From assembly GCA_050239825.1 (NCBI GenBank), contig JBFXGO010000015.1:1-46484 (forward strand): a stretch of DNA of 46,484 bases. Direction: 5' to 3'. Both the position numbers and the translations under genes were made by a program. Positions within the stretch are counted from its first letter, which is position 1. Each line of letters begins with the position of its first letter. The notes below the pieces were generated by a model that did no database searches, was not told the DNA's origin, and was given only the letters and a program-made list of their open reading frames with translations. This DNA is from a bacterium (GTDB lineage Bacteria; Hydrothermota; 32-111). Below, piece after piece: positions 1-46,484 of this stretch.

Positions 1-355
1 ATCTAAAGAAGCATAATTAATTTTATATCATTATCGGGTCTTTTGCAAGTAATTAAGTTCTTTAATTGAAAAAAGGAGAATTATCGATTATCCTATTGAC
101 ACTCTTTCAAAGAAGCACCGTCCCCATTCACACCCATCAAATGCAGAACTTTTATGTCGCCCTTGTAATATAAAAAAAGGGAATAATATATAATTATATA
201 GGGGACGGTGTATCTCATTTATCTAATGAATTGCCAATAGCCCCCACATTATCCGAAGAAAAGAAATGATAAAAGCGGAGAGATTGCTTCTTCGACGATT
301 CAGTACAATAATGTGCTATGATAAAACTCTCATAATTATTTGTGTTTGTTAAGGA

Positions 356-13553: not shown

Positions 13554-13889
13554 GGGGGCGAAATTGGTCTCGACAGGGAGAGCCGTTGTGCAGGGGAAGC
13601 ATGCCGAGATTGCTGGGGTCTCGTAAAACACCGGCAAAAAAACAAACGGCGAAAATCTCGCAATCGCTGCTTAATGCAGCAGGGTTTACCGCTTCTTGTC
13701 AGGAGTTTCGGATAAACCCTCATTAACCTGACTGCTGGCGCGCTCTGCCGCGAAGCGCGCACTAAGATTAGCGGCAAAACTCTCTTCAAGTTGCACTGCG
13801 CGCGGAGAGAGTAAACAGGCAGTGCTAAGCATGTAGAAGGACTGCTCCACTCTCTTTGGACGCGGGTTCAACTCCCGCCGCCTCCACCA
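13554..13889 (+). ncRNA. ssrA: tmRNA, tag (A)GENLAIAA
   Basis: 5' GGGGGCG pairs with 3' CGCCTCC-ACCA and includes the G3:U wobble; T-arm GCGGG-TTCAACT-CCCGC; tag ORF 13648-13674 ends ALA-like IAA-stop. Confidence 0.96.
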
Positions 13890-13894
13890 TCTAT

Positions 13895-14107
13895 AGGGAC
13901 GGTGGTTGAAATAGTTGCAATTTTTAAGTCTGATCATTCAAATCATCTCTATTAATGCTGATTTTAAGCGATGCTGCTGTTTTTTCCGTGCTCACTTTTA
14001 AATTTTTTATTGTCAAATTATAATTGGTCCATTAATCATACAATGTGCCTGTTAATAATATATCCAATGTGATTTTTGTCACTTCAACTATTTCAACCAC
14101 CGTCCCT
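13895..14107. mobile_element. MITE-like non-coding element with perfect 23-bp terminal inverted repeats
   Basis: AGGGACGGTGGTTGAAATAGTTG (13895-13917) and its exact reverse complement (14085-14107); AT-rich interior. Confidence 0.65.
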
Positions 14108-21955: not shown

Positions 21956-23143
21956 ATGAAAAACAAACTCAAGGGAAATGTATTTCTTCTATCAATGGTT
22001 TCGCTCTTTACAGACACTTCTTCGCACATGATCTATCCGCTTCTTCCGGATTTTCTTGAAAAGATAGGAGCAAGCAAAACAATAATAGGAATAATTGAAG
22101 GAATCGCTGAAGCGGTTGCCTCACTTCTTCGCTCCGTTTTCGGAACTTTATCCGATAAGATGAAAAAGAGAAAGGAGTTTGTATTCTGGGGCTATGCTCT
22201 CTCTGCAATCACGAAACCTTTTCTCTTCATAGCTAATTCATGGATTATAGTTTTGCTTGTCAGATTTTCAGACAGGATAGGCAAGGCTGTGAGAACTCCT
22301 CCCCGCGACGCAATACTCTCAACATCCGTTGAGTCATCGAAACAGGGCACGGCATTCGGTTTTAACAGGGCTATGGACCGTCTCGGCGCAATCTGGGGTC
22401 CTATTCTTGCTTTCATAATTCTTGCTCTTTTCACTGATAAAGAAAGAGGCATGAGATATGTATTTTTGCTCTCATTGATTCCCGCATTAATAGCTTTAAT
22501 TTTTATTCCATTTGTGAAAGAGACCGGGGAGTTCATAAAAAAACAGAAAGAGATGAAGTATGCGGGTCTTAAATCAAAGAGGTTCATTCTCTTTTTGACC
22601 GCATGCATTGTCTTTTCATTGGGCAACTCTTCAAATTCATTTTTGCTTCTGAAGGCAAAAGAGACAGGGCTCACAAACATTGCTTTGATACCTTTGCTTT
22701 GGATAGTGTACAATATATCATCATCTTTCTTCTCAATAGTTCTCGGCCGGCTGTCAGACAAGATCGGCAGAACAAAAATCATCGCATTCTCTTTCCTCTT
22801 CTACGGCATTCTGTATGTGGGATTTGCATTTGCAGATAAACTTTACATGATATGGATTTTGTTCTTCCTATACGGAATCTACTATGGGCTTTCGGAAGGA
22901 ATATACAGAGCTTACATAGCGCAGATTGTTGAACCGGACAACAGGGGAACGGCATTTGGAATTTTCAATACGGGTATAGGACTGGTTCTTCTCCCTGCAT
23001 CAGTAATCACCGGAGTTGTGTGGGACAAATGGGGAAGCGTCTGGGCATTCAACCTCTGCGCAGTATTCAGCTTCATCGCCCTCATCATATTCGGAGTTCA
23101 TCTGTTACTGGAGCGAAGAAATCGCTTGATGAAGCGGTCATGA
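21956..23143 (+). CDS. MFS transporter
   Basis: 12 TM helices; GTLSDKMKKRK and GRLSDKIGR (motif A); RIGKAVRTPPRDA. Confidence 0.92.
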   Translation: MKNKLKGNVFLLSMVSLFTDTSSHMIYPLLPDFLEKIGASKTIIGIIEGIAEAVASLLRSVFGTLSDKMKKRKEFVFWGYALSAITKPFLFIANSWIIVLLVRFSDRIGKAVRTPPRDAILSTSVESSKQGTAFGFNRAMDRLGAIWGPILAFIILALFTDKERGMRYVFLLSLIPALIALIFIPFVKETGEFIKKQKEMKYAGLKSKRFILFLTACIVFSLGNSSNSFLLLKAKETGLTNIALIPLLWIVYNISSSFFSIVLGRLSDKIGRTKIIAFSFLFYGILYVGFAFADKLYMIWILFFLYGIYYGLSEGIYRAYIAQIVEPDNRGTAFGIFNTGIGLVLLPASVITGVVWDKWGSVWAFNLCAVFSFIALIIFGVHLLLERRNRLMKRS

Positions 23144-23167: not shown

Positions 23168-24614
23168 GTCATTTTGAACGCCTCTATTCAATGTTCTCCT
23201 GTGAAGAATCTGTCATTCCTGTCATACAGAACTCCGCCCCGCTTATCTTTATAGTGAAGTATCTATCAGCATTTGACCAGTGATATTGGATTAGTGATAT
23301 ATTTTGATTAAGATTTTGTCTTTACAAACAGACTCGAAAATTCCAGTGCAATCATCACTCAATATACTGATGAGTAATATTTATTCTTTTCAGTAATCTT
23401 CACAAAGTTCTGGTACAACCCGTTCTTTTCTATCATGGAGTCGCAGACTCCATTACACCCAAGCCAATGTGGGGACATTCCTTCGGTGTGTCCCCACTGC
23501 AACAATCAATTAATTAACTTATTGAAAGAGAAAGCTACAAGTCGGCGAGGACGCTCCGCACAGACGCCCATCAAGTGGTTTGGGGACATTCCTACGGTGT
23601 GTCCCCACAACATCCCATCTTGATAAAGCGGCGAAGCGAAGTGTGTGAGCCGACGCTACGCTATTCATCAGCCCCCTTATATTTCTTGATTAGCGACCAG
23701 TGATTTTGGACTAAGGATAGCCTTTGAGTAAGACTTTGTCTTTACATTAATCTTCACAAAGTTCTGGTGCAACCCGTTCTTTTCTATCATGGAGTCGCAG
23801 ACTCCATTACACCCAAGCCAATGTGGGGACATTCCTTCGGTGTGTCCCCACTGCAACAATCAATTAATTAACTTATTGAAAGAGAAAGCTACAAATCGGC
23901 GAGGACGCTCCGCGCAGACGCCCATCAAGTGGTTGACCCCTTGCTCCGCTATCCCATCTTGATAAAGCGGCGAAGCGAAGTGTGTGAGCCGACGCTACAC
24001 CCGCCATCAGCCCCCCAAAATCAGCTCTGAGCCGTGAGCCATGTGCCTTGAGCTTAATACGTGGAGCTGATTAAATAACTTGCCTTTACAATTCCGAGGA
24101 AAAATTCCAGTGCATCTCCGCACTGCTATTCAATGTTTTTCCGAGGACAATCAAGTCCATTCTTATTGAAAGTGAAAGCTACAAGTCGGCGAGGACGCTC
24201 CGCGCAGACGCCCATCAAGTGGTTGACCCCTTGCTACGCTATCCCATCTTGATAAAGCGGCGAAGCGAAGTGTGTGAGCCGACGCTACACCCGCCATCAG
24301 CCCCCCAAGCATTTCTTGACTCGTGACCAGAGATGTTGGACTAGTGATAACCTTATCCCATCTTGATTAAGCGGCGAAGCGGAGTGTGCGAGCCGACGCT
24401 TCGCTATTCATCAGCCCCCTAAAAACCAGCTTTTTGAAACCACCGTCCCTGAGAAAAAAACTATAAACCATACCCCGTCCCCAGTGTTAAGTTCAATAAA
24501 GAAGGGGGGTTAAAAGATCCTGATTTTATTTGCATTTTACTGGTTTACTCGCTCACCAGTTTACCATTCCGTCTTTCTGAACACTTCTTATCACTGCTCT
24601 CGCGTGAAGAATCT
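23168..24614. repeat. Mosaic palindromic repeat block L (non-coding)
   Basis: Long-hairpin units at 23518-23676, 23872-24016, 24162-24306 and 24355-24419 (partial); GGGGACA/TGTCCCC hairpins near 23469, 23581 and 23823; 21-nt boxes; heptamer tracts. Confidence 0.92.
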
Positions 24615-26096: not shown

Positions 26097-27105
26097 GTCA
26101 TCTTGAACTCCGCAGTAGTTATCTCTACTGTGAAGTATCTGTCAGCATTTCGACCAATGATTTTGGATTAGTGATATATTTTTTCCCGTCATACTGAACT
26201 CCGCAGTAGTTATCTCTATAGTGAAGTATCTATCAGCATTTGACCAGTGATATTGGATTAGTGATATATTTTGATTAAGATTTTGTCTTTACAAACAGAC
26301 TCGAAAATTCCAGCGCAGTCACCACTCAATATACTGCTGATTAATATTTTGTCTTTTCAGTAATCTTCACAAAGTTCTGGTGCAACCCGTTTTTTCTATC
26401 ATGGACGCTCGCGTCCATTACACCCAAGCCAATGTGGGGACATTCCTTCGGTGTGTCCCCACTGCAACAATCAATTAATTAACTTATTGATACTCGAAAG
26501 CTCAAAGTCGGCGAGGACGCTCCGCGCAGACGCCCATCAAGTGGTTGACCCCTCGCTTGGCTATCCCATCTTGATAAAGCGGCGAAGCGAAGTGTGTGAG
26601 GCGACGCTACGCCTGCCATCAGCCAGTAAATCAGCCTTGAGCCTTGAGCCATGTGCCATGAGCATAATACGGGGAGCTGATTAATATTTTGTCTTTTCAA
26701 TTCCGAATGAGAAGCCTGTCCACAGCGCTCGTCTTTTCAATGCTTCTCATGAGGACAATCAATTAATTAACTTATTGAAAGTGAAAGCTCAAAGTCGGCG
26801 AGGACGCTCCGCGAAGACGCCCATCAAGTGGGCGACCCCTTGTTACGCTAACCCATCTTGATTAAGCGGCGAAGCGGAGTGTGTGAGCCGACGCTTCGCT
26901 ATTCATCAGCCCCCCAAATCAGCCCTGAGCCTTGAGCCATGTGCCATGAGCATAATACGGGGAGCTGATTAATATTTTGTCTTTACAATTCCGAATGAGC
27001 GCTACGCTATTCAGCCGCCCCCCAAAAACCCAGCTTTTTGAAACCACCGTCCCTAGGAAGTATCGTCTTGAACGGCTCTTATCGATGTTTTCGTTTGAAG
27101 GTTCC
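26097..27105. repeat. Mosaic palindromic repeat block R (direct-repeat counterpart of block L)
   Basis: 26188-26624 resembles 23221-23676; long-hairpin units at 26483-26624 and 26771-26915; shares the 25-bp CCAGCTTTTTGAAACCACCGTCCCT (27030-54) with 24426-50. Confidence 0.92.
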
Positions 27106-27393: not shown

Positions 27394-28405
27394 ATGAGTG
27401 GTTTAGTACCTCGGAATTCACAAATAATTATTTACAACACAGAAGACGGAAGAGTCAAGCTTGATGTGAGGTTCGATGGAGATACCGTCTGGTTGACTCA
27501 GCAACTGCTTGCCGAGTTGTTTGATACGACAAAACAAAACATTAGTCTTCACCTGAAAAATACTTTTAAGGAAGGAGAGTTGGTTGAAAAATCAGTTGTC
27601 AAGGAATTCTTGACTACTGCAGCGGATGGAAAACAATATAACATCAAATACTATAACTTAGATGCCATTATTTCAGTAGGTTACAGAGTTAATTCCGCCC
27701 GTGCAACACAGTTTAGAATATGGGCAACGCAGAGACTAAGAGAGTATATTGTTAAAGGATTTGTTCTGGATGACGAGCGGCTCAAAAATCCCGATTTGCC
27801 GTTTGATTATTTTGAGGAACTGACCAGAAGAATTCAGGATATCCGCACTTCAGAGAAGAGGTTTTACCGTAAGATAACAGAGATTTACTCACTCAGCGTG
27901 GATTACGACCCGACAAGTGAAATGAGCATCAATTTTTTCAAAACAGTGCAAAACAAAGTTCATTGGGCTATAAACGGTAAAACAGCCGCTGAAATAATCT
28001 CCGAAAGAGCCGACAGCAAGAAATAGAATATGGGTCTGACAAACTGCGCGTGGAAGTGTTCCAAGAAAGAGTGATGTGACAGTTGCTAAAAACTATTTAA
28101 CTGAAAGCGAATTAACAGCTCTTAATAATTTAGTGGAACAATACTTGATTTTTGCAGAAGGCAAGGCAATGCGCAGAATTCCGATGAAAATGAAGGACTG
28201 GGTGGAAAAATTGAACGGTTTTTTAAAATTGAATGACAGAAATATTTTGGAAGATGCCGGGAAAATATCACATGAATTGGCTGTGGAAATGGCAGAGAAG
28301 GAGTATGACAAATTCAACAAAAAGCGTCTAAAGAAACAAATCAATATTGAAAACGATTTTGACAAAGCAATTAAGATGATAGAGAAAAAGAAGAAGAAAA
28401 AATAG
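27394..28405 (+). pseudogene. rhuM: RhuM-family (virulence_RhuM) DNA-binding protein, disrupted
   Basis: VWLTQ, YNLDAIISVGYRVNS, ATQFRIWAT, IRTSEKRFYRK, VAKNYL. In-frame TAG at 28024-26 plus a +1 frameshift near 28047. Confidence 0.85.
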
Positions 28406-32477: not shown

Positions 32478-35400
32478 ATGACTGAAAATTCAGTTTTTAT
32501 TACTAATAGTCAAACAAAACAGCTAAAGAAAAGATTAATTGATTTGATTAAAAGCAGTTCAGAACTAAAATTTTTGGTGGGCTTTTTCTATTATTCCGGA
32601 ATTAGAGAATTATATGAAGGGCTTAAAGAAAATTCTTCTATTTGTATGAAGGTCCTTGTTGGTTTATCGGTTTCTAATGATGCCTTTGGACTTGTAGAAT
32701 ATGGTGAAAATGTTAAAGAACTAACACTTGGAGAAAGAGTACAAAGGTTTTATCAATCGATTGAAAATTCAGTAAATTCTGATGATTTTGATACAAAGGA
32801 ATTTTATGAACAAATTAAGTTTTTTATTGAGATGATACAAGATGGGAAATTGATTATTAGAAGGACAAAAGAACCAAATCACTCAAAACTATATTTTTTT
32901 AATTTAACAAATAGTTTGGTCAAGCCCAAATTGTTTATTACGGGAAGTTCAAATCTTACAAAAGCTGGGCTTTCTACACAGAGAGAATTTAATGTAGAGC
33001 TTAGCGATTTTGGTACGATTGAAGCAGAGTTATATTTTAATTCTCTCTGGGATGAGTCAGACAAAATTACAGAGACGGAAAAATATAAAAAGGATTTAAT
33101 AAGAATTTTGCAGAGAAAAACTCTTATAACTGAAATTACTCCTTATGAAGCCTATGCAACCATAATAAAGAATTATTTAGATGTTTTTACTCCAAAAGAT
33201 AGTGATGGTAGAGTTCATAATTTATTAGAAAGCGCTGGCTACAAACCATATACTTATCAAATAGATGCAGTGAGTCAAGCTTTAGAAGTTATCAAAGAAT
33301 ATAATGGTGTAATACTAGCTGATGTTGTTGGATTGGGTAAAACAGTTATCGCCTGTGCGATAGCGAATCTCTTAAATGAGCGTAGAGGATTAATTCTATG
33401 TCCTCCAGGATTAATGGGTGATAATAGTGAATCAAGTGGATGGAGAAAATATACGAAGGAATTTGATTTGCACGGTTGGCAAGTTCGCTCTATTGGCGAT
33501 TTGGAAAATACATGGGCCTATATAAAAGAACAGGATGGATATAATACTGTAATCATTGATGAAGCACATAGATTTAGAAATGAAGATACAGAAAGTTATG
33601 AAACACTATTAAATATCTGTAAGGACAGAAAGGTAATACTTCTGACGGCTACTCCATTCAATAATTCTCCTGCAGATATTTTTGCTTTACTTAAACTGTT
33701 TGTGGTACCCGGGAAATCAAAACTGACTCTTGAAGATGATTTGGATATTACATTTAGAATCTATCAGAATGTTTTTGATAAGCTTTCCTTTATTAATAAG
33801 AATCATAATTCCTCTAAAGAAATAAACAAGAAGAAATCCGAGTCGATTTATAAAGCGTTGTTTGATGAAAACTCAATAGATTTATCAAAAGTAAGAAAAA
33901 AATCGCATTATATTTCCAAGCAAATTAGGCAAGTGATTGAACCTGTTTTGATTCGCAGAAACAGAAAAGATTTAAAAGAAGATCCATTCTATAAAAAGGA
34001 AAAAATAGAGTTATCCATTCTTAAAGATCCTGAAGAAATCTTTTTCAAATTATCCAAAGAGCAATCGGAGTTTTATGACAAAGTAATAAATGAATATTTT
34101 TGCGAGGGAGGAATGTTCAAGGGTGCCATCTACAGACCGTTCTTTTATGAGAAAGAGTTAAAAAAGAGTATTGGCAATAAAAGGAAAAAAGAGAAAAATG
34201 GTTCTGATGATAACAGAGACATGCAGATGCAAGTCAATCTATATGATTTCATGAGAAGATTGCTTGTAAAGAGGTTTGAAAGCTCTTTTGGTGCGTTTGA
34301 AAAGAGTATTAGTAATTTTGAGAAAATACATCTTTCAATTTTGGAATTCATAATAAATTCGGATTTCAAATATATACTGGATAGACAATTCATTGAGAAA
34401 ATACATGAATTAGATTACGAACAAATCTCTATTGAGTTAGTAAAATACATAGAAAAAATTAAAGATAAGAAAGAAATCGTTAATCCTAAAAAGTATAGAG
34501 TATATAATGTAAAGGAATTTTATAGAAAAGAAGAATTTATAAAAGATATTCAAAATGACATATGCTTATTCCAAATAATAAAAAAAGAATTAAAGCAAAT
34601 GGAATTGGTAAACAATGATCCTAAAGTTACAGAAATTTACAATGAGATTGAAAGATTGATTAAGAATAACAAAAATGCCAAAATTGTATTATTTACTGAG
34701 TACATTGATACCGCAAAGCACATTGAAGCAAAGTTTAAGAGCGAAGGAAACAACACTCATTATGTTGTTAAAGATGAACTAAACAAATCAAAAGTTGAAG
34801 AGATAATCAAAAATTTTGATGCATCCTCAAAAATTCAAGAAAATAATTATAATATTCTTATCACAACAGATAAAATGTCTGAAGGATTCAATTTAAATAG
34901 AGCTTTTGCAGTTATAAATTATGATATTCCATGGAATCCAACGCGAGTAATACAAAGGGTAGGCAGAATAAATAGAATAGGAAAGAAAGTCTTTGATTAT
35001 CTTTATATCTATAATATATTCCCTTCAGAAAGGGGTGCAGACATAATTAAGAGCAGACAGATAGCTCAAAATAAAATGTACATGATTCACAACACTCTTG
35101 GTGAAGACTCTAAAATATTTGATGTGGATGAAGTTCCTGAAGCATCAAAACTTTATAAAAAAATTCTGCAGAACCCAAATGAAATTGAAGATGCAGGCTT
35201 TTATACTAAATTAAGGCGAGAGTATGCGGAAATGAAAGAGGATGATATCCTAGTTGAGAAAATCAAGAATATGCCTATTCGTATTAAAGTTGCGAAAAAA
35301 TATGATAACTATTATTTGGATACATTTATTAGGAAGGGAAAAGGTTTCTTCATTAGAAGCGTTGAGGGTGGAAAGAACGGTGTTGTCGATAGTGCTATGG

Positions 35401-35825
35401 AAGATATAATTCATAGAGTTAAATGTGAAAAAGATGAGCATAGTTATGAGATAAGCGAGAAATTTTGGGAAAATTATGAAAACACAAAGAATCCCAAAAA
35501 GAAAACTGAAGAAGTTCCAGAAATGAAAAAGATTGAGACCGAAGCGTATAACAATTTAAAATCAATTTTAGAGATTGACAGTGAGAAACTTTTACCTCTA
35601 AAAGAAGATTTAAGAAAATTGCTTCGAAATATAGAAGAATACAAAACATTGCCATTATATTCTTTAAGAAGAATAAGAAACATCGTAATTACAGATGATA
35701 ATGATAAACTTGCTAAAGAAATAAAAACTGTACTTGATAGAATCAACTTAGGTTCGTCGTTATCTGTTGACAATTCTATAAAAAAAGAAGTTATAATAGC
35801 TGTGGAGAATAGAAATGATATCTGA
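32478..35825 (+). CDS. PLD-nuclease / SNF2-family helicase fusion (restriction-associated)
   Basis: HSKLYFF...GSSNLT (PLD-like), [45 protein letters not shown]. Confidence 0.9.
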
Positions 35826-38800
35826 TCAAAACATTAAAAACGCTCTTGAAGTTCTTATTCAAAATTATTCTGACACAAATTTGTATAAGTTTCTTGAATT
35901 AAAGACTGAGCATATTAGAAAGAAGAAAAATGATTTCACGAGCATTGTTGATAAAGACTTTCTACAATCATTAAATCAGATTGCTGAAATTGAACTGGAA
36001 AATGAGAAAAAAATGTTCGTTATAACCGGAGAGATGAAAAAAGAGTTAAACGAGAGAACGGGAAAGAAAAAACAATATGATGTAGCTAAAGACATCCTAA
36101 AAAGTAACCATAGTTATGATTGCGGCATTTTCGTTTTTTATGACGGAGATGGGAATTTCAGATTTAGTTTAATATTTAAAGAATATTTAGGGGTAAAAGT
36201 AGATGTAAGCACATTTAAAAGATACACATACTATGTCTGTAAGGAATTTACCAATAAAACTTATTTGCAACGAATAGGCAACAGCGATTTCTCCTCATTT
36301 GCCAAGATTAAAGAGGCGTTCTCGGTTGAAAAGGTCACAAAAGAATTTTATCAGGATATTGCCAACTGGTATTTTTGGGCTGTTTCGCATTGTCAATTCC
36401 CCAAAGATGTAGAAGCAGAAGAAAACGGCCGCAATATTGCAGTTATTCGCCTCATCACCAGAATTATTTTTATTTGGTTTATGCGAGAGCGAGGACTCAT
36501 TAATAAAAGCTTGTTTGAAAAACAGCAAATACAAGATATTTTAAAAAATTTAAACAATGACGAATCAAGTTATTACACAGCGATATTGCAAAATTTATTT
36601 TTTGCGACGTTAAGCACTAAAAAAGGAGAAAGGCAGTTTGGTAGCAAGACAAAAGGCCACAGAGGTTATAACCCAGATTTTGGCAATCAATATGTTTTCC
36701 GCTATCAGGAAATGTTTAAAAATTCTGGAAATATAAAAGATTATTTTGGCGATATTCCTTTTTTAAATGGAGGCCTTTTTGAATGTTTGGATGATAAGAA
36801 GAACGGAATTATCATTGACGGATTTTCGCGAACAAAGAAAAACCAACCGAAAGTACCCAATTTGCTATTTTGGGGTGCAGAAGAAACAATTGATTTGAAC
36901 AAAACCTATGGTACAAAAAGTAAAACATACAAAGTACGAGGACTCTTAAATATTTTGTCGTCTTTTAATTTCACGATTGACGAAAACTCGCCTGATGACG
37001 CCGATATAGCACTTGATCCGGAGCTTTTGGGAAGAGTATTTGAAAATCTACTGGCCAGCTTTAATCCTGAAACATCCACCACCGCTCGTAAAGCCACAGG
37101 CAGTTATTACACTCCGCGCGAAATTGTGGATTATATGGTCACTGAATCCTTGAAAGCTTATTTTCAAACGCACTTGAACAATATTGAAAAAATTGATGAA
37201 AAATTGGAGAAGCTTTTTTCCAACGAATTTTCAGTAAATCCTTTTAATGCTAACCAATCTAAAAAATTGGTTAAGCTAATTGAAAACGTCAAAATTGTTG
37301 ATCCAGCTGTTGGCTCCGGTGCTTTTCCTATGGGAGCTTTAAATAAGCTGGTGTTTATACTAAACAAAATTGATCCGGGAAATAAATTATGGAAAGAAGC
37401 GCAGTTAAAGGCGGTTGATGCCATACCCGATCCAAGCGCTAGAAGAATCGCAAAAGAGCGGATTGAAGAGTTTTTTGAAGGTAAAAATGCGGACTATGGT
37501 CGAAAACTATATTTGATTCAACGTTGTATTTACGGTGTAGATATTCAGCAAATTGCCGTGGAAATAGCCAAACTTCGTTTTTTTATCTCACTTTTAGTAG
37601 ATGAAAAGATTGATAAGGAAAAAGATAATTGGGGAATAGAACCGTTACCAAATCTTGATTTCAAAATCATGCAGGGGAATAGCTTGATTTCCGAATTTTT
37701 GGGTATTGATTTTGATGATGGCAAGTATAAACAAGAACAATCGGGAATGCTTTTTGATCAGGATGACGATTCACTTATTAAGGAATTTGAGCAAAAGAAA
37801 ATAGATTTTCAAAACGAAGCGGATAAAGATAATAAAATCAAACTTAAGCAAGATGTGGAAGATTTGATGATTCGTATTTTCGAAAATAAGGTCATAAAGC
37901 AAAAAGGTGATTATTTTAGACAATTGAAAGAGATTGAAAAAAAATATTCTATATTACACAATCAAAAACAGCGGGATGAGATTGTGGCACAAGAAAAGCA
38001 AAAACTCTCCAAAAAATCTGGCTTTGACCTGGAAAATATAGAAAAACAATTGCGCGAATTTACCAGCAAAAAGAAAACAAGACCGTTTTTTCCTTGGAAA
38101 CTATATTTTGCGGAGGTGTTCGAAAAAGAGGGATTTGATGTTGTGATTGCTAATCCGCCGTATATAGGAGAGAAAGGACACAAAAATATATTTAAAGAGG
38201 TTAAGAATGGTGGTCAAATTGGCAAATTCTATTTGGGCAAAATGGATTTTTCCTACTTCTTTTTTCATCTTGCTTTAAACCTTGGTAATCCTGAAGCAAA
38301 AATTGCTTTTATCACTACAAATTATTACCCTACTGCACTTGGAGCAAAGAAATTACGCGAGGATTTTAGAAATAGAACTATTTTAGAAAAACTAATTAAT
38401 TTTAATGAATTAAAGATATTTAAGTCTGCTACTGGTCAACACAATATGGTAACGCTTCTTTCTAAAGGACAAGATGCTAATTATTTTACCAAAACATGCA
38501 TAACTAAAAGGACGGGTGAAGCGAATTCCGGAATATTAAACTCAATTGTCAGTTGGCATGATAGTATGACAGAATATTATACAATTAAACAAAATGATTT
38601 ATATGATGGCAAAGAAGATTATATTCGTTTACCCGGTAATTCTATGATTTCAGATGATCCAGTGCAAAATATTTTAGATAAAATAAAAAAACAAGGGGAA
38701 GTTTTGGGTATCATATGTAATGTCAATAATGGTGTTTTTGCGGGTGCTGACAGTTTGAGCCTAAACAAAAAACAAGAATATAATATTCATAATGCTATAG

Positions 38801-39567
38801 AGGGGGAAGGAATATTTGTGTTAACTAACGAGGAAGTTGTTAATAAAAAATTTACTAAAGAAGAACTAAAATTAATTAAGCCGTTGTATAAAAACTCAGA
38901 TATTAAAAAATATTATACTAACTCAAAAAATGAGCTAAACTTAATAAATTTAAGATACACAGATAGACCTAATTTAGAAAGTTATCCTAATTTTGAAAAG
39001 CATTTATTGAAATTTAAAACTTTATTGAGCAAAAGGCCAGAAACTGGCACTTTAGAATCAGCATTTAAAAACGGTTATTGGTATGTTATGTCTACAAGTC
39101 GAAAAGTGGATATGGAACATGCAAAAATTGTATTTCCTCAAAGAAGTTGCGAAAATACCTTTGGGTATAACGAAGATGTGTGGTATGCCATGTCTGATGT
39201 ATTTTTTATTACTGATAAAAAAGAAAATGCTTTAGTAAAGCTGAAATATATTTTATCTATATTAAATTCAACATTGTTTTATATTTGGTTATATTATAGA
39301 GGAAAAAGAAAAGGTGAAACACTTGAATTAACAGGAACACCAGTTTCTGAAATACCAATAAAAACTATTTCAGAAAAGGATCAAAAACCCTTCATCAACC
39401 TCGTTGATCTAATCCTTGCCATCACCAAATCTGCCGACTACCTGCAAAATCCGGACAAGCAGGCGAAAGTGAAAGAATACGAAAAGCAGATTGATGAGCT
39501 GGTTTACAAACTCTATGAGTTGACGCCGGAGGAAATTGAGATTGTGGAAGGTTCCACAAAAAAATAA
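35815..39567 (+). CDS. Type IIG/Eco57I-like N6-adenine DNA methyltransferase with a TaqI_C-like target recognition region
   Basis: [31 protein letters not shown] (motif I), GVDI, IANPPY (motif IV), C-terminal [16 protein letters not shown]. Confidence 0.92.
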
Positions 39568-39584
39568 TGACCAAAGATAAAATG

Positions 39585-40262
39585 GGAACGGTGCTTGACA
39601 TCTTGACTCTTATAAAACGAATTCGGAGAATATAGAAAGGAGGAAAAGAAATGGCAACAGAAATTGTTAAAAGCATTATGGAATTTTTGAAAATAGTTAT
39701 TCCAATGACCATCACAGCATACTTAGGATATTTATACGCTGTAAAGAAAGATAAGGAAGAAAGAAAAAGAAAATATGAAGAAATGCAATTAACTGAATTT
39801 TACTCACCAATATTAGCTTTACGAAGAAAAATATTATCCTATGGTGAAATGCGAGAAGAAGTATATAGTGCGATGGATAAAACATGGAGGAGCAAATGCA
39901 AAATGACAAATATAGAAAATATTGAATATGAGAAAGAATTTAAGGATTATGATAAAGGGATTGTATATCAGAATGATAAATTTAGAAATATAGTATTCCC
40001 ATTATACAATGATATGATAGAAGTATTTTCAAAAAAATATTGGTTAGCCGAACAAGAAACAAGCTTGTATTATAATAAATTAATCAAGTTTCATGAAATG
40101 TGGAGTATATATTTCCAAAAGGCTGTTCCGGGAGAAGCAATGAGTGAAATTGGGATTACGGAAAGCGAATTATTACCATTTTATGAAAATGTTGAAAAGG
40201 TGTTCAATGAACTTAGATTAAGAATATCAAAAAAAGATAGGAACGGTGCTTGACATCTTGAC
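39585..40262 (+). repeat. Perfect 23-bp direct repeats flanking a single gene
   Basis: GGAACGGTGCTTGACATCTTGAC at 39585-39607 and 40240-40262. Confidence 0.92.
39651..40253 (+). CDS. Hypothetical protein with an N-terminal TM helix
   Basis: AGGAGG RBS; hydrophobic IVIPMTITAYLGYLYAV followed by a helical domain; stop codon lies inside the 23-bp repeat. Confidence 0.75.
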   Translation: MATEIVKSIMEFLKIVIPMTITAYLGYLYAVKKDKEERKRKYEEMQLTEFYSPILALRRKILSYGEMREEVYSAMDKTWRSKCKMTNIENIEYEKEFKDYDKGIVYQNDKFRNIVFPLYNDMIEVFSKKYWLAEQETSLYYNKLIKFHEMWSIYFQKAVPGEAMSEIGITESELLPFYENVEKVFNELRLRISKKDRNGA

Positions 40263-40406
40263 AGAAACAAGACGCCATGGGCAGTGTGCCTTGAGCCGTG
40301 GGCAAGATAAAAAGAGTAAGAAGAAACAAAAGAAAAATTATGATAAAAGGAGCCATGTTGACAAAAGAGATTGGGTGGATAGAATTGAAGAAATCAGGAG
40401 GTAGAG
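40263..40406 (+). promoter_or_regulatory. Portable promoter/RBS module A, copy 1
   Basis: Heptamers, A-rich tract, GGAGCCATG-TTGACA (40358-63), 16 nt, TAGAAT (40380-85), AGGAGG. Confidence 0.8.
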
Positions 40407-41522
40407 ATGGCTGTAAATGGTAATAAGAATCAAAGTAAATATAACTTGACAGACGATTTGCTTAAAACCTTTGTTGTAATTATATTAGGTTTTATTCTTT
40501 GGCTTTATCCCTTTTTATTTCCTAAAACAATTTTAATAATTGTTAACGACATTATAAGTCCTATAATATTAAAACTTATCACTATTGGATTTGTAATTCT
40601 TTATTACTTCATTATTCAATTCAAATACGGTAAAAATATAGTTTATGAACTAGCTTTTAAAATAATATTTTTTCCTTTATATATTTTATATAAAATAGTA
40701 GAAATCATGTTTTCAACATTTGATATTATTAATAAAATATTAAATCTACTTCAAAAGCAATTATCTTGGGTTGTTATAGTATTTTTTGTATATGTAGAAT
40801 TTCTTTTAATATTTCATGACTGCAACATTTATCTTTATATAGTTTTTTTAGTTTTCAGTTTATTCATTTTAGTCTGGTTATTTATTTGGCTTATGAATTG
40901 GGTTTTTAAGCCATTTAAGTCAATAGCAAAGCAGATTATGACAATGTTCTTGAAAATATACAATTCTATTGTTGATATTACTCTTAAAAGTAGCAATGGA
41001 GAAAAAAAACTCAATGAGGTTGAAAATTACATAAAAAAACTAGTTGAGTTCAAGGTAAAATTTACACGAATCAGCGTTGAGAGAATGACTGCTATAGCTT
41101 TTGGACTATTCTATTTCTTAAACATCTCATTAATTGTGATTCTTTACGCAATGCTATATTTGTCTTTAAACAAATTATCGATGTTTTTTATCAAAGACAC
41201 ACATTCTTTACCTATTGACTATGTATTGTGTAGCATAACTACGTTACTTGGTAATACTCCTTATAGCCTTGAACTCCTTACAGGAATTTCGAAAACCCTC
41301 ATCCTAACCGAATTATTTGTAGGTATAATGTTAATGATAATATTACTTGCAATTGCATCATTATTAATGAAAGAACATTCGAGGGAAATTCACTCGGATT
41401 TAGAAGCACTTATGCAAAAGAAAATTGAAGAGTTAAATTATAAAAAGAATAACATTATTAAAGAAATATCTACATCTGATGCGAAAGAATTGAATCTTTT
41501 GGAAAAGAAAGAAAAAGAATGA
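40407..41522 (+). CDS. Multi-pass membrane protein with a C-terminal ion-channel-like TM-pore-TM unit
   Basis: Several TM helices; LYAMLY...DYVLCSITTLLG...KTLILTELFVGI resembles Ion_trans_2. Confidence 0.6.
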   Translation: MAVNGNKNQSKYNLTDDLLKTFVVIILGFILWLYPFLFPKTILIIVNDIISPIILKLITIGFVILYYFIIQFKYGKNIVYELAFKIIFFPLYILYKIVEIMFSTFDIINKILNLLQKQLSWVVIVFFVYVEFLLIFHDCNIYLYIVFLVFSLFILVWLFIWLMNWVFKPFKSIAKQIMTMFLKIYNSIVDITLKSSNGEKKLNEVENYIKKLVEFKVKFTRISVERMTAIAFGLFYFLNISLIVILYAMLYLSLNKLSMFFIKDTHSLPIDYVLCSITTLLGNTPYSLELLTGISKTLILTELFVGIMLMIILLAIASLLMKEHSREIHSDLEALMQKKIEELNYKKNNIIKEISTSDAKELNLLEKKEKE

Positions 41523-41627
41523 TTGTATTGAACGGCATTTTTATATGACATGTAATTGTTAGTTTAATACTGAAACGAAAAAGGTAAAAATAATAGAAAT
41601 GATTAATTGGTAAATGAGAAAAAGCAA

Positions 41628-42368
41628 ATGAGAAAAGCAATAGTAAAAGAACCATGTAGGCTTTGTAAAAATAACACAGAATTATGTGAATCACATATTT
41701 TACCTGAATTCATGTATACGGAATTGTATGATGAGAAACATCGATTTGTAGAAATTGATGTCGAAAGAAAGAAAGAGCGATTTGGACAGAAGGGAATTAG
41801 AGAATACCTATTCTGTAAATCGTGTGAAACTTTAATGAGTAAGTATGAGAATTATGCATCCGATGTGTTGAGAAGAAATATTTACTGCAATGCTTCAACT
41901 AAGAAAATGTACAGGGGGAAAGTAATTTATGAAGTATTGGAACTCAATTATAATAAGTTGTTAAAGTATTTTTTAATAGTAGCATACAGGAGCGCTATTT
42001 CAAGTAAAGTATTTTTTCAAAACTGCAAATTGGATAGCTTTAAATTGAATACATTGGAAGTATTAATAAATGATGTCAAAAAAGAAGTACCAAGAAATAA
42101 ATATCCACTAATTGTTATTAAATTAATAAATAGAGTATTTAAAGGAAAAACAGTTTTAAGGGAGCCATCAATATATAATTTACCTAATCATTTAGATAGT
42201 GAATTTTATAGGTTATTCAATGGGAACTTTATTTTTATGCAAGGATTGCAAATAAAAGAATTTAGAAAATATATGAATGATTTCTCTCTGAAAGAGAATG
42301 GGAGTATTCTAATACCAGAATTTGATTCTATAACATCACCCGAGATAAAATCCTTATTTGGAGCATGA
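41628..42368 (+). CDS. HNH-like zinc-binding endonuclease
   Basis: CRLC...ESHILPEF...LFCKSCE pattern. Start is ATG 41628 or TTG 41607. Confidence 0.7.
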   Translation: MRKAIVKEPCRLCKNNTELCESHILPEFMYTELYDEKHRFVEIDVERKKERFGQKGIREYLFCKSCETLMSKYENYASDVLRRNIYCNASTKKMYRGKVIYEVLELNYNKLLKYFLIVAYRSAISSKVFFQNCKLDSFKLNTLEVLINDVKKEVPRNKYPLIVIKLINRVFKGKTVLREPSIYNLPNHLDSEFYRLFNGNFIFMQGLQIKEFRKYMNDFSLKENGSILIPEFDSITSPEIKSLFGA

Positions 42369-42376
42369 GGGCTGAT

Positions 42377-42628
42377 GGGGACGATAGGTTTTGTCAATAC
42401 TTTCAAGCGAGACAGGCGAAGACGCACCGTGAGCCTTGAGCCGTGAGCGAGAAAAGAAAGTTAATGGTTTATAGTTGATGGTTAAGAGTTAACAAGACGC
42501 TGTGAGCTATGTGCCTTGAGCCATGGGCAAGAAAAGACTAAGAAGAAACAAAAGAAAGATTCTGATAAAAGGAGCCATGTTGACAAAATGGAATGGGTGG
42601 ATAGAATAGAGAAAAATAGGAGGTGATT
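42377..42628 (+). repeat. Module A copy 2 (55-bp head, one ~80-bp unit, promoter, RBS)
   Basis: Head GGGGACGATAGG...GCACCGTG (42377-431); TTGACA (42580-85), 16 nt, TAGAAT (42602-07); AGGAGG 42618-23. Confidence 0.88.
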
Positions 42629-42910
42629 ATGGCGGATTATAAGATTGACGGGAAGTATTTAAAGGACAGGCACGGGAGCAAAATCGGAGAGTTTGACAGG
42701 CGTTCGTTTAGAGACAGTCATGGAAGTAAAGTCGGAGAGGTTGACAAAAATTATATCAGAGATTCTCACGGACATAAAATAGCTGAATTGGACGGAAGGT
42801 ATGTCAGGGTTGATGGTAAAAAAGAAACCGATTTAGACCACATTCAAAAAATGATTGATGGTCCCGGCGGCATCTCTCTTGTCGGTTTCTGGGTGTTGTT
42901 TATAAGATAA
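42629..42910 (+). CDS. Small beta-repeat protein (16-aa D..G.K(I/V)(G/A)E.D repeats) with a hydrophobic C-terminus, paralog 1
   Basis: YLKDRHGSKIGEFDRR / SFRDSHGSKVGEVDKN / YIRDSHGHKIAELDGR; strong RBS. Confidence 0.75.
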   Translation: MADYKIDGKYLKDRHGSKIGEFDRRSFRDSHGSKVGEVDKNYIRDSHGHKIAELDGRYVRVDGKKETDLDHIQKMIDGPGGISLVGFWVLFIR

Positions 42911-42928
42911 AAAAAAAAGGAGGAAAAG

Positions 42929-44563
42929 ATGACATCTTTGTATCTATCGAAATTAAATTCAAAAGAAAAAGAATCTTTAGTAAATGAATTGCATAGTATT
43001 CAAAAGGGAAAATGTTTTATTTGTGGTGAAGATATTGATTTAAATATACACGAAGGAAATTATGATATAGATCATGTTGTGCCACTAAAAATGAAAGGTC
43101 CAGATAATCCCAATAATTTTGCATTAACACATAGCAGTTGTAATAGATCAAAACAAGCTTCAGATTTAAATGTCGCGCGTATTTTAAAGGGATTTGAAAT
43201 GTTGAGAAACAAACTGACTGTTGAAAACAGAGAGCCTAATTTAAACGATATTTTAGACCAAAACATGGGAGGAAAATATTCTATTAAATTTAGAATTGAA
43301 AATAATTATATTAAATATAGTCTTCCTGAAAGTGGGAAGAATGAAGTTCTAAGTGAAAGAATATTTGAGGATAAGTTAAGTGGGTTCAAATATTTTTTTG
43401 CAGTTTTACCAATAGAATACATTTTTCATGATGACAAAATTAATCCTAGGTCAATAGGGGCAAATATCTCAAAATTAGTTCATGAATTCTACTTAAAAAG
43501 ACCTCAGCTTCACATTCAACTAAGTTGGATTGATATGACAGAAAACAAAATAAAAGTTAAAGTCTTTGACGGACAGCATAAAGCTTCAGCACAAATAATG
43601 CTCGGTGTTAGAGAATTGCCTTTGAGAGTGTTTATAGATCCAAATATAGATATTTTACTTACTACAAATACTAATGCTGGCACAACTCTTAAACAAGTTG
43701 CATTTGATAAATCAGTACAAAGACATCTAGGGAGTTCCCTTTACTTTGAACGAATTGAGCAATATAGAATAGATCATGAGATAGAAGATGAAAATTATAA
43801 TTTCTCTGAGAGGGATTTGTTAAATTATTTCAAAGGTGAATCCAAAGAAGTAAAAAAATATATTCTTGATTCTGTTAGAGATTCAATATCTCATAATGTT
43901 GATAATAAATTGAAGGATTATATTGATTTTGGTGGTAGAGCTAATGATAAACCATTTTCATATAGTACTATTGAGAAGACATTTTATTCGTTTTATATTT
44001 ATCAAGAGGTTTTAGATACTCCCATCAATCATAAGATGGAAGTTGGTGAAAATCCTAGAAACTTGGAAAAAGAACAAATAATGCAACTTATGAATATAAT
44101 CGCAGATGAAATATATATAAACAAGTATGATTCTGATAGAGGTACATCTCAAATAGAAAATAAAATTCAGAAAGGTGAAGATATCCCATTAGCTCATTTG
44201 ATAGCTTATAGAATGGCTAAAGAAGAAATTGCCTACAATTGGTTAAAATACATTTTACAGATTGCTCAGAATTTTTTTATTACGACTGGTGTACCTATCA
44301 ATGAGAAAAAAATCTTTCAATACAAGTTTCCAGAGCAATTATGGCAAAATATTACAAACTTTATAAGAAATTTCAGTAATTTGCCATTATGGGTAAATAA
44401 AGAAATGTCAAAAACTATTTTTGGCGGCAAACCAAATAATGCGTATTGGCAAACAATTTTTGAAACAGGTAAATCTCCTCAAAATATAAAAGTTCTCGTG
44501 GAACCAATAAATTTAATGAATTTAATAAAAGGCGATGAATCAGAAAATATTATTGGGAATTAA
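42929..44563 (+). CDS. HNH endonuclease fused to a DGQH(R/K) ParB/DndB-like domain
   Basis: CFIC...DIDHVVP...G...NNFALTHSSCNRSK; INPR...VFDGQHKASA. Confidence 0.8.
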   Translation: MTSLYLSKLNSKEKESLVNELHSIQKGKCFICGEDIDLNIHEGNYDIDHVVPLKMKGPDNPNNFALTHSSCNRSKQASDLNVARILKGFEMLRNKLTVENREPNLNDILDQNMGGKYSIKFRIENNYIKYSLPESGKNEVLSERIFEDKLSGFKYFFAVLPIEYIFHDDKINPRSIGANISKLVHEFYLKRPQLHIQLSWIDMTENKIKVKVFDGQHKASAQIMLGVRELPLRVFIDPNIDILLTTNTNAGTTLKQVAFDKSVQRHLGSSLYFERIEQYRIDHEIEDENYNFSERDLLNYFKGESKEVKKYILDSVRDSISHNVDNKLKDYIDFGGRANDKPFSYSTIEKTFYSFYIYQEVLDTPINHKMEVGENPRNLEKEQIMQLMNIIADEIYINKYDSDRGTSQIENKIQKGEDIPLAHLIAYRMAKEEIAYNWLKYILQIAQNFFITTGVPINEKKIFQYKFPEQLWQNITNFIRNFSNLPLWVNKEMSKTIFGGKPNNAYWQTIFETGKSPQNIKVLVEPINLMNLIKGDESENIIGN

Positions 44564-44636
44564 TAGATGGGGATGTGCTTACAATATTAGCATTTTCGTA
44601 TTGAATGAAAAGCATTTTTGGAAATAGGAGGAAAAA

Positions 44637-44713
44637 ATGGAAACGGATAAAAAGACAACTTCGAAAAAATATAATATTGTTGATGATTTATTAAGAACTT
44701 TTGTTGGAAAAAT
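44637..44713 (+). pseudogene. 5' stump of a paralog of the 40407 membrane gene
   Basis: AGGAGG and ATG, then SKKYNIVDDLLRTFV, matching QSKYNLTDDLLKTFV. Runs into the module A head at 44714. Confidence 0.7.
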
Positions 44714-44887
44714 GGGGACGATAGGTTTTGTCAATACTTTTAAGCGACGCAGGCGAAGACGCACCGTGTGCCATGAGCCGTGGGCAAGAAAAGACAGAGA
44801 AGAAACAAAAGAAAGATTCTGATAAAAAAGGAGAAATGTTGACAAAATGGATTTGAAGGATAGAATAAAGAAAAATAGGAGGTGATT
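44714..44887 (+). repeat. Module A copy 3 (55-bp head, promoter, RBS)
   Basis: Head 44714-768; TTGACA (44839-44), 16 nt, TAGAAT (44861-66); AGGAGG 44877-82. Confidence 0.88.
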
Positions 44888-45172
44888 ATGGCGGATTATA
44901 AGATTGACGGGAAGTATTTAAAGGACAGGCACGGGAGCAAAATCGGAGAGTTTGATGGAAGGTGTTTTAAGGATATGACAGGAAAGAAAGTCGGGAGTAT
45001 CGACCATGAATTTGTTAAAGATGACGGAGGAAGAAAAGTGGCAGAGATTGATGTCGACATTATAAAAATCAGAAATAAAAAATATGACTTTGATGATTTA
45101 AGAAGGAAAATTTACGGTGACGGCATTATGTCTCTGATAGGCTTTTACGCTTTGTTTGTTGATGAGAAATAG
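44888..45172 (+). CDS. Small beta-repeat protein, paralog 2
   Basis: First 23 aa are identical to the 42629 protein; the rest is diverged but alignable. Confidence 0.75.
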   Translation: MADYKIDGKYLKDRHGSKIGEFDGRCFKDMTGKKVGSIDHEFVKDDGGRKVAEIDVDIIKIRNKKYDFDDLRRKIYGDGIMSLIGFYALFVDEK

Positions 45173-45180
45173 GAGAATAT

Positions 45181-45924
45181 ATGAACTTCATTGATTCCGA
45201 TAATGAAATTATTGATGCATCTAAATTTATAGAAATTTGGTCAAAAAAATACTACCAATATACAAATATAACTGATAAATACTATTTTGACATTTTAAAA
45301 GATATTGCAGAACGAACAGATGCAACTATGATTTTAACGAGAATCGGGGCATGGAAAACTAATTCATTGAGTACTAATTCAAACAGATATAGTGAAGAAC
45401 GAGAAATCTACAGGTGTAGTTGCGAGAAGCCGGCAGTTCTATGTCTTACAGGAATGTGGAAAAAGGGAACATCATCAGGATATGAAGTATGGATAAAACT
45501 TAGTGAACGATTTTATAACGATATAGAAAGAATTAAGATTGACTCTGATGCTGAAGAAATCATTAATAAGATAAGTGAAATGAGGTATTCAGGTCCAAGG
45601 GGGAAAAATATTAGGTTTGGGAAAATATATTCCTATACCTACCTTCACTTCTTGGCGCCTGATAAGTATTTCATACTGGATAAATTTAACAAAATAGCAC
45701 TAGAGTTCTTAAAACAGCCTTCAAAACCTTCATTACCATTCTCCAATGAAATGAAAGTGAATACTTTTGAAGATTATCTTGAATATAATGAAATGATAAA
45801 AACCATTCAGAAAAATGCAAGGGAAGAAAATAACAGAAATGTCGATAAAGCACTTTGGTCATTTGGTCATTGGTTAAAAGATCAAAAAGAAAGAAAAGAG
45901 AAAATTGTTTGCTGTAAAACATAG
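45181..45924 (+). CDS. Hypothetical protein, HhH DNA-glycosylase-like
   Basis: GAWK...FGKIYSYTYLHFLAPDKYFILD...YLEY...RNVDKALWSFG pattern. Confidence 0.55.
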   Translation: MNFIDSDNEIIDASKFIEIWSKKYYQYTNITDKYYFDILKDIAERTDATMILTRIGAWKTNSLSTNSNRYSEEREIYRCSCEKPAVLCLTGMWKKGTSSGYEVWIKLSERFYNDIERIKIDSDAEEIINKISEMRYSGPRGKNIRFGKIYSYTYLHFLAPDKYFILDKFNKIALEFLKQPSKPSLPFSNEMKVNTFEDYLEYNEMIKTIQKNAREENNRNVDKALWSFGHWLKDQKERKEKIVCCKT

Positions 45925-45932
45925 GGGCGGGA

Positions 45933-46360
45933 GGGGGCGATAGGTTTTGTCAATACTTTTAAGCGAGACAGGCGAAGACGCACCGTGCGCCTTGAGCGAG
46001 AAAAGGCAGTTAATAGTTTATAGTTGATGGTTGAGAGTTGACAAGAAGCCGTGAGCCATGAGCAAGAAAAGAAAGTTAATGGTTTATAGTTAATAGTTGA
46101 GAGTTGACAAGAAGCCGTGAGCCGTGTGCCTTGAGCCGTGAGCGAGAAAAGAAAGTTAATGGTTTATAGTTGATGGTTGAGAGTTGACAAGAAGCCGTGA
46201 GCCACGCACCTTGAGCCGGGGGCGAGAAAAGGCAGTTAATGGTTTATAGTTAATAGTTGATAGCTGAGAATCGAAAGCGTAGAATACAAAACTGATAAAA
46301 GGAGCCATGTTGACAAAATGGATTGAAATGAATAGAATTAGAGAAAAATAGGAGGTGAAG
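45933..46360 (+). repeat. Module A copy 4 (55-bp head, four tandem heptamer-built units, promoter, RBS)
   Basis: Head 45933-987; unit periods 66, 80 and 80 bp; TTGACA (46310-15), 17 nt, TAGAAT (46333-38); AGGAGG 46350-55. Confidence 0.88.
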
Positions 46361-46484
46361 ATGGCTTTATATGTTTTTCATGAAGAATCTATCCTGTTAA
46401 AAATCGTGATAAAAATGACCCACCGTCCCCCATATAAGTAATTAATTTATAGATGGTTGGGAGGGGTGAAGAAAGAGGTGATTG

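Follow-up and report, generated by a model that had tools for sequence, protein, structure and literature searches.

Repeat-bearing spacers between accessory genes of an uncultured WOR-3 bacterium: a probable mosaic of transposon ends, heptamer arrays and a re-used promoter

The DNA analysed here, called the window below, is the whole of contig C28 (JBFXGO010000015.1, 46,484 nt) of G000, a 2.1-Mb genome of an uncultured WOR-3 bacterium that is assembled in 67 contigs and is 99% complete, with 40% GC. Its subject is an array that runs from 39584 to the contig end, where four spacers (40240-40406, 42377-42628, 44714-44887 and 45933-46360) part unrelated AT-rich genes on the + strand. G000 was compared with its congeners G001 and G002 and with the remainder of a family set of 14 genomes (G000 and 13 others). 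In the spacers, the elements follow a common order, as seen with a repeat finder and by alignment: a short repeat termed the head, heptamer arrays, an A-rich tract, TTGACA-16/17-TAGAAT, AGGAGG and ATG. A preliminary description of this DNA had reported such a constant order between unrelated genes, and the repeat finder recovers each family that it described. Also as reported there, heads begin 8 nt past the stop codons at 42368 and 45924, and the stop codon TGA at 40251-40253 lies inside a head. The features of the array are as follows.

39584-39607, + strand: head of type B, copy 1, read as a solo terminal inverted repeat (TIR) of a TIRYT element (see below); an identical head fronts a partial TIRYT gene at G000:C57:29928
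39651-40253, + strand: cargo 1, a 200-aa protein of no family; the next head contains its stop codon
40239-40262, + strand: head of type B, copy 2; 34-nt direct repeat, 88% identical, with 39574-39607
40266-40406, + strand: GC-rich heptamer block, A-rich tract and promoter/ribosome-binding site (RBS) block, with TTGACA at 40358, TAGAAT at 40385, and AGGAGG
40407-41522, + strand: cargo 2, a 371-aa multi-pass membrane protein of no family
41607-42368, + strand: cargo 3, a 253-aa protein, HNH_5-like by predicted structure only
42377-42414, + strand: head of type A, copy 1
42415-42628, + strand: heptamer arrays (GTGAGCC-type, then AGTTAAT/GGTTGAG-type), A-rich tract and promoter/RBS block
42629-44563, + strand: cargo 4, a two-gene unit with a Bflower_2 small membrane protein (42629-42910) and a 544-aa HNH protein (42929-44563)
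44569-44596, + strand: degenerate B-like head (GGGGATGTGCTT...), 5 nt past the HNH stop, read by eye and missed by the regex census
44637-44713, + strand: 5'-end remnant of a paralog of cargo 2, cut precisely at the first base of the next head
44714-44887, + strand: head of type A, copy 2, with a short heptamer block, A-rich tract and promoter/RBS block
44888-45924, + strand: cargo 5, with a Bflower_2 paralog (44888-45172) and a 247-aa protein (45181-45924)
45933-46360, + strand: head of type A, copy 3 (GGGGGCG variant), four tandem 66-80-nt heptamer-built units and promoter/RBS block
46361-46441, + strand: 26-codon open reading frame (ORF) behind the last promoter block, overlapping an inverted head; the sole content of the fifth slot
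46406-46430, - strand: inverted head-like element (GGGGACGGTGGGTCATTTTTATCAC) near the contig end

The heads are indeed repeats, at a length of 24-38 nt, although not of the single type first proposed, as the array holds two types (A and B) together with the degenerate copy at 44569 and the inverted one at 46430. Type B, GG(G/A)AACGGTGCTTGACATCTTGAC, begins at 39584 and 40239 and has 12 copies in G000. Type A, GGGG(A/G)CGATAGGTTTTGTCAATACTTT(T/C)AAGCGA, begins at 42377, 44714 and 45933. Among the 272 genomes of the phylum, it is present in eight copies in G000 and three in G001, and in none of the others; at its locations elsewhere (four loci in genome contigs and six in metagenome contigs), it occurs without the cargo of the window. 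Only heads of this length are true repeats. The 9-nt core that had first been written down as the repeat shows no genome-wide enrichment, with 59 matches versus 65 in a reversed-sequence control, and was given up as such.

The head family of G000 comprises 72 classified copies in ten subtypes, made up of 61 heads from a core census, one of them of type B, and a separate set of 12 type B copies. Every subtype opens with (A/G)GGGACG(G/A), which is followed by a subtype-specific tail of about 18 nt. The heads are mostly found between genes (59 of the 61 census heads, though ORFs of 150 aa or more cover 86% of the genome), usually from a few to 100 nt behind the stop codon of a co-directional gene. 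Some stand in core settings, such as behind the tmRNA gene, between the tRNA-Ala and 23S rRNA genes and behind a tRNA-Ser gene, and one type B head belongs to an insert, about 250 nt long, that separates two genes with 8 nt between them in G001. When folded as single-stranded DNA, both strands of the heads give about 0 kcal/mol, with z above 0 and no hairpin or other secondary structure.

Two further observations concern heads on other contigs. On metagenome contig L089 (oriented positions 859-1000), heads of type A, TTGTAAAG-type and type B stand in tandem within about 130 nt behind one gene, as a cluster that resembles a bacterial interspersed mosaic element (BIME). In addition, a transposase gene of the IS110 family adjoins head A in four contigs from three sources (G000:C44:7066-7957, the metagenome contigs L092 and L094, and L047, which is G008:C63). 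The end of this gene is about 75-110 nt from the head, in constant relative orientation, and head A looks like a preferred target of the IS110-family element or a part of its end. A form with head A and 75 nt but no transposase is present on G000:C47 and L087. The latter (JBFXJF010000028.1) is binned as part of a Vulcanibacillus metagenome-assembled genome (MAG), and carries head A with the 75-nt extension together with an ORF typical of the GC-rich repeat of WOR-3; the contig may come from WOR-3 and have been mis-binned.

The origin of the heads is indicated by the genes that they flank. G000 has four full Y1_Tnp genes (30-47 bits in Pfam, cut-off 23), whose proteins all contain the HYH motif, while Y-x-x-x-NP is found in three of them and a C-terminal HTH_23 domain in two. 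The best NCBIfam match for the four is REP_Tyr_transpos (NF047646), at 57-73 bits, below the cut-off of 80. Inverted repeats surround all four genes. In three they are of head type, 26-34 nt long with the GGGACGG core, and in the fourth (G000:C18) a different GC-rich inverted repeat was found by eye. Across the family, inverted repeats of at least 18 nt occur at 15 of the 23 Y1 genes with usable flanks, ten of them with the core GGGAC[GA]G. Moreover, two contig ends carry a partial Y1 gene directly after a head, which is of TTGTAAAT-type on C56 and of type B on C57; in the latter case, the same 29 nt immediately precede the gene. Gene-less pairs of heads are present as well. Four pairs that resemble miniature inverted-repeat transposable elements (MITEs) were found in G000, at 13896-14106 of the window (211 nt) and on C14, C41 and C47 (210-212 nt), and in their ends they correspond to the TIRs around the TIRYT gene of C14. 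The pair in the window consists of type F heads without assigned strand, and is in a housekeeping setting directly behind the tmRNA gene (13554-13889). Taken as a family, the heads are terminal inverted repeats of RAYT-like Y1/HUH transposase genes, of the already described TIRYT/TIRtron kind. A HUH gene co-occurring with the spacers had been suggested as something to look for, and the genome does contain such a family with head-type flanks; on the contig of the window, no Y1 gene was found.

A complete TIRtron was observed at L074 (G000:C5:3241-6579), where a 259-aa Y1 gene with 34-nt inverted repeats is located inside the spacer of an rRNA operon, between the tRNA-Ala and 23S rRNA genes. A second TIRtron follows a tRNA-Ser gene.

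The second component of the spacers, the heptamer-based arrays, is dispersed over 60 loci in G000 (99 regex hits versus 2 in the control), 53 of which are intergenic. Only 11 of the 60 have a head within 350 nt upstream. In front of the -35 box, these arrays range from none to four units of 66-80 nt.

The third component is a promoter/RBS block of about 90 nt. As had been described, each slot has its own expression signals: four matches to TTGACA-16/17-TAGAAT, each with 11 of 12 positions, begin at 40358, 42580, 44839 and 46310, and are followed by AGGAGG and ATG. The block occurs in six copies in G000 (the four of the array and one each on C24 and C44), three in G001 and two in G002; it is absent from the 11 other genomes of the family and from the control. 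These 11 copies in three genomes of one genus precede unrelated ORFs. All copies agree in their -35 and -10 boxes and in the RBS but differ in the stretch between the two hexamers, and identity between species is about 85-90%, compared with about 78-80% for coding DNA. A small upstream ORF within the block (ATG TTG ACA AAA...) differs in length by copy, from 6 to more than 20 codons. Each block is predicted to drive the unit behind it, although two of the six in G000 precede only ORFs of 15 and 26 codons. Placement beside accessory genes, which had been expected for the whole spacer, holds for this block, seen solely before such genes, but not for the heads, which also stand beside tmRNA, tRNA, rRNA and conserved genes. 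Similarly, the proposed ATG-GC start is present in five of nine block copies, two of the five being paralogs, and differs in the rest. In addition to the four strong matches, the second TTGAC of head B copy 1 forms the -35 box of a weak predicted promoter (TTGACT-17-GAGAAT, 39603-39631).

How the units have changed can be read in part from their edges. The DNA of units 4 and 5 is 100% identical from the -10 region of the promoter through codon 23, that is, over the first 68 coding bases, and about 55% identical thereafter. Since this sharp edge of identity lies within coding sequence, it points to gene conversion or a homologous crossover rather than to a site at the ATG, which therefore does not mark a junction. 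Downstream of unit 4, a 25-codon remnant of a paralog of the 371-aa protein (11 of 23 residues identical, E 5e-6) stops at the first base of the head A at 44714, and the remainder of its gene is nowhere in G000. The remnant may be the product of an adjacent deletion, of the type made by transposases, at a transposon end. The 200-aa unit, in turn, is flanked by the 34-nt direct repeats that contain head B. Cargo order had been expected to vary with breakpoints at the heads, yet no cargo swapped at a head was found in any relative. One candidate for a mobile unit was rejected: a 7-kb segment on G000:C18 is bounded by inverted type B heads, but in G001 its right-hand genes are contiguous with the flank, and the right head is part of an intergenic insert about 250 nt long.

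Because the three repeat classes are dispersed independently, the spacer module is not one unit. The earlier proposal of a single repeat acting as a new capture platform is thus not sustained, as its heads are of a known kind, the TIRYT-type TIRs. We consider it probable that the array is the variable tail of a defence island with BIME-like mosaic spacers, which combine transposon ends of TIRYT type with heptamer arrays and a re-used promoter. Homologous recombination would be the main process that reshapes the array, and events at heads an occasional one. The position in an island is indicated by comparison with G002, in which the MFS gene that ends at 23143 in G000 is followed by about 260 nt and then by mazEF and housekeeping genes, whereas a mazE homolog opens contig C12 of G000 (G000:C12:1-14). 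The entire 23144-46484 is thus an insertion relative to G002 between the MFS stop and mazE. Since this site is empty in G002 and the mazE of G000 begins C12, the array appears to lie at the far end of an island that is strain-specific and at least 23 kb long. The stretch would then be the distal, co-directional tail of an accessory or defence island, into which three classes of repeats may have come. The first would be solo TIRs of TIRYT/TIRtron elements, spread in trans by Y1 enzymes and landing in intergenic DNA just behind stop codons throughout the genome. The second would be degenerate heptamer-based tandem arrays of variable copy number, and the third the block of about 90 nt with a sigma-70 promoter and a Shine-Dalgarno site, re-used before unrelated accessory genes within the genus. 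Homologous recombination and gene conversion between the repeated spacers could duplicate, truncate and reshuffle units, to which adjacent deletion at a head by a transposase-type reaction might add.

Several observations weigh against this reading. Five of the 72 classified heads and four of the six promoter blocks are inside the 6.9 kb of the array, a strong enrichment, and every unit has a head at its end, at a distance of 0-16 nt from the stop codon. The remnant cut at head A and the 200-aa unit bracketed by direct heads also fit site-specific events at heads. For head A, no cognate TIRYT gene was found in G000, the 13 relatives or six metagenome contigs; the TIR of G005:C102 resembles it, a resemblance only, and core similarity together with positional behaviour is the whole basis on which head A is placed in the family. 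Furthermore, the strain occurs in one sample, and the transcriptional activity of the promoter blocks is a prediction. Much of this list is shared by an unlikely alternative, a cassette platform driven by HUH enzymes, in which one or two genes with a 3' head form a cassette that a TIRYT enzyme cuts out and places at heads, the equivalents of attC, with expression provided by the promoter block. The enrichment, the closeness of heads to stop codons, the exact end of the cargo 2 paralog at head A and the direct type B heads around the 200-aa unit all agree with such a platform, as do the presence in trans of Y1/HUH genes with the same ends, the unrelated cargo of congeners and the head-bearing arrays that also stand between unrelated small genes in G001 (C93 and C2) and on L089. 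It accords poorly, however, with the solo heads between conserved or housekeeping genes and the 211-nt MITEs, and with the alternation of three head subtypes in one array when elsewhere each subtype has its own Y1 gene. Nor does it account well for a contig without a Y1 gene, for the fact that not one cargo gene was seen at two different head-bounded places, for two promoter blocks before nothing but the 15- and 26-codon ORFs, or for heads that do not have secondary structure of the kind recognised by known Y1 enzymes or IntI, and the homogenised tract that crosses the ATG into coding sequence fits homologous recombination. With a gene remnant that stops precisely at a head, and a unit that has direct heads on both sides, a small chance is left for HUH-mediated gene movement at these sites. 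The corresponding proposal, that solo TIRs act as attC-like 3' tags between which a Y1/HUH enzyme in trans moves single defence units as single-stranded DNA, the promoter block travelling along, is likewise improbable in our judgement.

It is also unlikely that the spacers are primarily regulatory, with the promoter block, and perhaps heptamers acting as iterons or copy-variable spacers, giving the defence genes a common and possibly phase-variable control, so that the repeats are kept for function and not for mobility. Such a role would suit the higher conservation of the block than of coding DNA between species, its placement before accessory genes only, and the variation of the heptamer arrays 5' of the -35 box from none to four 66-80-nt units. 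There is also a precedent in Haemophilus, where heptanucleotide repeats near promoters (hmw genes) reportedly lead to phase variation (PMC8262952, PMC12721329). Nevertheless, no regulator was identified, conservation is focused on the RBS and on the -35 and -10 boxes with a variable spacer between the hexamers, most of the 60 heptamer loci are away from the promoter block, and two blocks have no gene behind them. Finally, the unit order, or the array itself, might be unreal if an assembler had chained unrelated metagenome pieces through the repeated spacers. The source is a MAG, the contig of the window ends inside or beside repeats, and among the Logan assembly contigs the stretch was found in one landfill-metagenome run, probably the source sample, where independent contigs break at the spacers after 42402. 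On the other hand, depth is even across the unique parts (about 14-20), spacers 1 and 2 are spanned by one 11.3-kb contig that bridges 38500-42402, every junction of head and cargo has a unique sequence, and comparable arrays exist in another species. Because of the even depth and the bridging contig, a gross artefact is not indicated, and we hold this explanation to be very improbable; rare rearrangements are beyond the reach of these contigs. The Logan joints listed are no evidence of circles or deletions, because their short sides measure 21-39 letters and the joints lie within repeats.

The cargo is strain-specific. It had been described as defence-like, with two HNH proteins, a channel-like protein and a glycosylase-like protein, and of these one is confirmed, the 544-aa protein with an HNH domain (42929-44563). 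The second HNH protein, of 253 aa, is HNH_5-like by predicted structure (template-modelling score, TM, 0.79), and the glycosylase is a weak lead of the same kind, the 247-aa protein having a TM of 0.46 to HhH-GPD, under the bar. Both of these proteins resemble clusters of other phyla. For the 371-aa protein, formerly called channel-like, and for the 200-aa protein, no family was found in Pfam, NCBIfam or PADLOC, and the former lacks homologs in the other 13 family genomes. Conversely, the genes of the comparable arrays of G001 mostly have no homolog in G000. The two tandem two-gene units (42629-44563 and 44888-45924) each begin with a Bflower_2 membrane protein, 54% identical between them, followed by an unrelated partner (the 544-aa HNH protein or the 247-aa, weakly HhH-GPD-like one). 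They may represent a conflict system in which the small partner is conserved and the effector is swapped.

Upstream of the array, backbone genes occupy 1-23143, among them LptF/G, GDH, IscS/NifU and tmRNA. Accessory genes follow from about 24.6 kb on, and were identified with Pfam, NCBIfam and PADLOC as an AbiE pair, a split RhuM, Bro-N, ORF6N, a Schlafen-type protein and the two genes that directly precede the array:

32478-35825, + strand: SNF2/PLD helicase (Pfam, NCBIfam, PADLOC)
35815-39567, + strand: type IIG restriction-methylase (Pfam, NCBIfam, PADLOC); the array starts 16 nt past its stop

Homologous helicase and restriction-methylase pairs are found within the genus (g5), with different genes downstream. 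The RhuM-family gene is in two pieces, an ORF at 27394-28026 that matches the N-terminal part of the Pfam model and one at 28076-28405 that matches the C-terminal part; this is probably a broken gene. A 287-nt tandem repeat at 26467-26999 (1.9 copies, 89% matches), also seen at 23500-23700, belongs to another GC-rich dispersed repeat family, which also terminates contigs C30, C39 and C51. At its other end, the window starts (1-125, reverse strand) inside a multi-copy element that opens with a type D head. Its first 122-125 nt recur without a difference at the ends of five contigs (C28, C3, C9, C13 and C41), and a copy on C23 is 98% identical over 99 nt; the element is probably an unassembled insertion sequence or a larger repeat. 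In G002, the empty site of about 260 nt contains a head-like GGGGACGGGG behind a terminator hairpin. An Rfam search of 24000-46484, with E up to 1, gave no match.

A tempting false lead is removed: a defence island can take on an integron-like appearance through the accumulation of transposon-end repeats, tandem repeats and a re-used promoter. At the same time, a rich system of TIRYT genes and TIR repeats is recorded in an uncultured phylum, with at least ten head subtypes, MITE-like derivatives, a copy in an rRNA operon spacer and heads that serve as apparent landing pads of the IS110 family, which makes G000 a good place for testing the action of TIRYT enzymes. Should the cassette reading prove true, a second and mechanistically different gene-capture platform, a HUH-driven and promoter-bearing analogue of the integron, would exist in WOR-3, and the TIRYT class would gain a function.

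One known system for comparison is the integron. Integrons consist of the integrase IntI, an attI site and cassettes bounded by attC, which are mostly promoterless and expressed from a common Pc promoter. The array shares with them a co-directional string of unrelated small accessory genes, a short element recurring within a few bases of each stop, and strain-specific cargo. By contrast, its units bear their own near-consensus promoters (four predicted, one per unit), and the recurring element is a genome-wide transposon end without a hairpin. As the preliminary description had held, there is no integron: over the whole genome, the best match to the integron integrase model TIGR02249 reaches 94.7 bits versus a cut-off of 265, and corresponds to an Xer-like gene on another contig; in 39501-46484, there are 0 RYYYAAC...GTTRRRY core pairs versus 0.97 expected in shuffles. 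Integron membership is rejected, and the likeness is one of layout only. The heptamer arrays, for their part, recall the heptanucleotide tandem repeats known as short tandemly repeated repetitive (STRR) sequences in heterocystous cyanobacteria. Like these and the repeats of the hmw genes, they are degenerate intergenic arrays with a 7-nt period and variable copy number. They differ, however, in sequence and phylum, and are organised here as higher-order units of 66-80 nt.

The promoter block is comparable to the putative mobile promoters, or cases of promoter reuse, treated in portions of one report (PMC3575422), in which similar promoter segments stand before non-homologous genes. Here too, a very similar promoter and RBS segment precedes non-homologous genes, both within and between related genomes. 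In this case, though, the block is limited to one genus, is clustered (four of six copies in one array) and is physically tied to transposon-end and heptamer repeats. Regarding the heads, one point of comparison is given by REP, BIME and REPIN sequences and their RAYT (TnpA-REP) enzymes, as covered in parts of the articles of Bertels and Rainey (2011, PMC3116915, PMC3337134). In both cases, short repeats stand just 3' of genes, are tied to a single-copy Y1 gene that they flank, and enter mosaic combinations with other motifs. The IS110-type transposase that adjoins head A in four contigs adds a likeness, as IS110 elements target REP-type repeats in other bacteria according to extracts of two sources (PMC8450116, 10.64898/2026.03.19.712850). 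Unlike REP sequences, the heads are not palindromic, have no GTAG tag and have a folding energy of about 0, and the Y1 proteins fall under the NCBIfam RAYT cut-off (57-73 vs 80 bits).

The nearest counterpart is the TIRtron/TIRYT group. Sections of Di Nocera et al. (2013, PMC3733652) give the TIR motif GGGGWSAS and describe moderately abundant, dispersed families of TIRs, and an excerpt of Quentin et al. (2018, PMC6006769) places TIRYT mainly in subclass 2.1, with a C-terminal helix-turn-helix (HTH). The G000 system agrees in having RAYT-like Y1/HUH genes that encode about 260-300 aa and in some cases a C-terminal HTH, non-hairpin inverted repeats starting GGGGAC... that flank the genes, and gene-less copies in intergenic DNA that are single, paired or clustered. 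The cores found here, GGGGACGG and GGGGACGA, correspond to seven and six of the eight positions of GGGGWSAS, respectively. What differs is the presence of at least ten subtypes in one 2.1-Mb genome, the joining of heads to heptamer arrays and a promoter block before successive defence genes, and a head type, A, for which no cognate gene was found. The components of the array are of known kinds in a new combination, which is of use chiefly as a well-populated TIRYT system in WOR-3.

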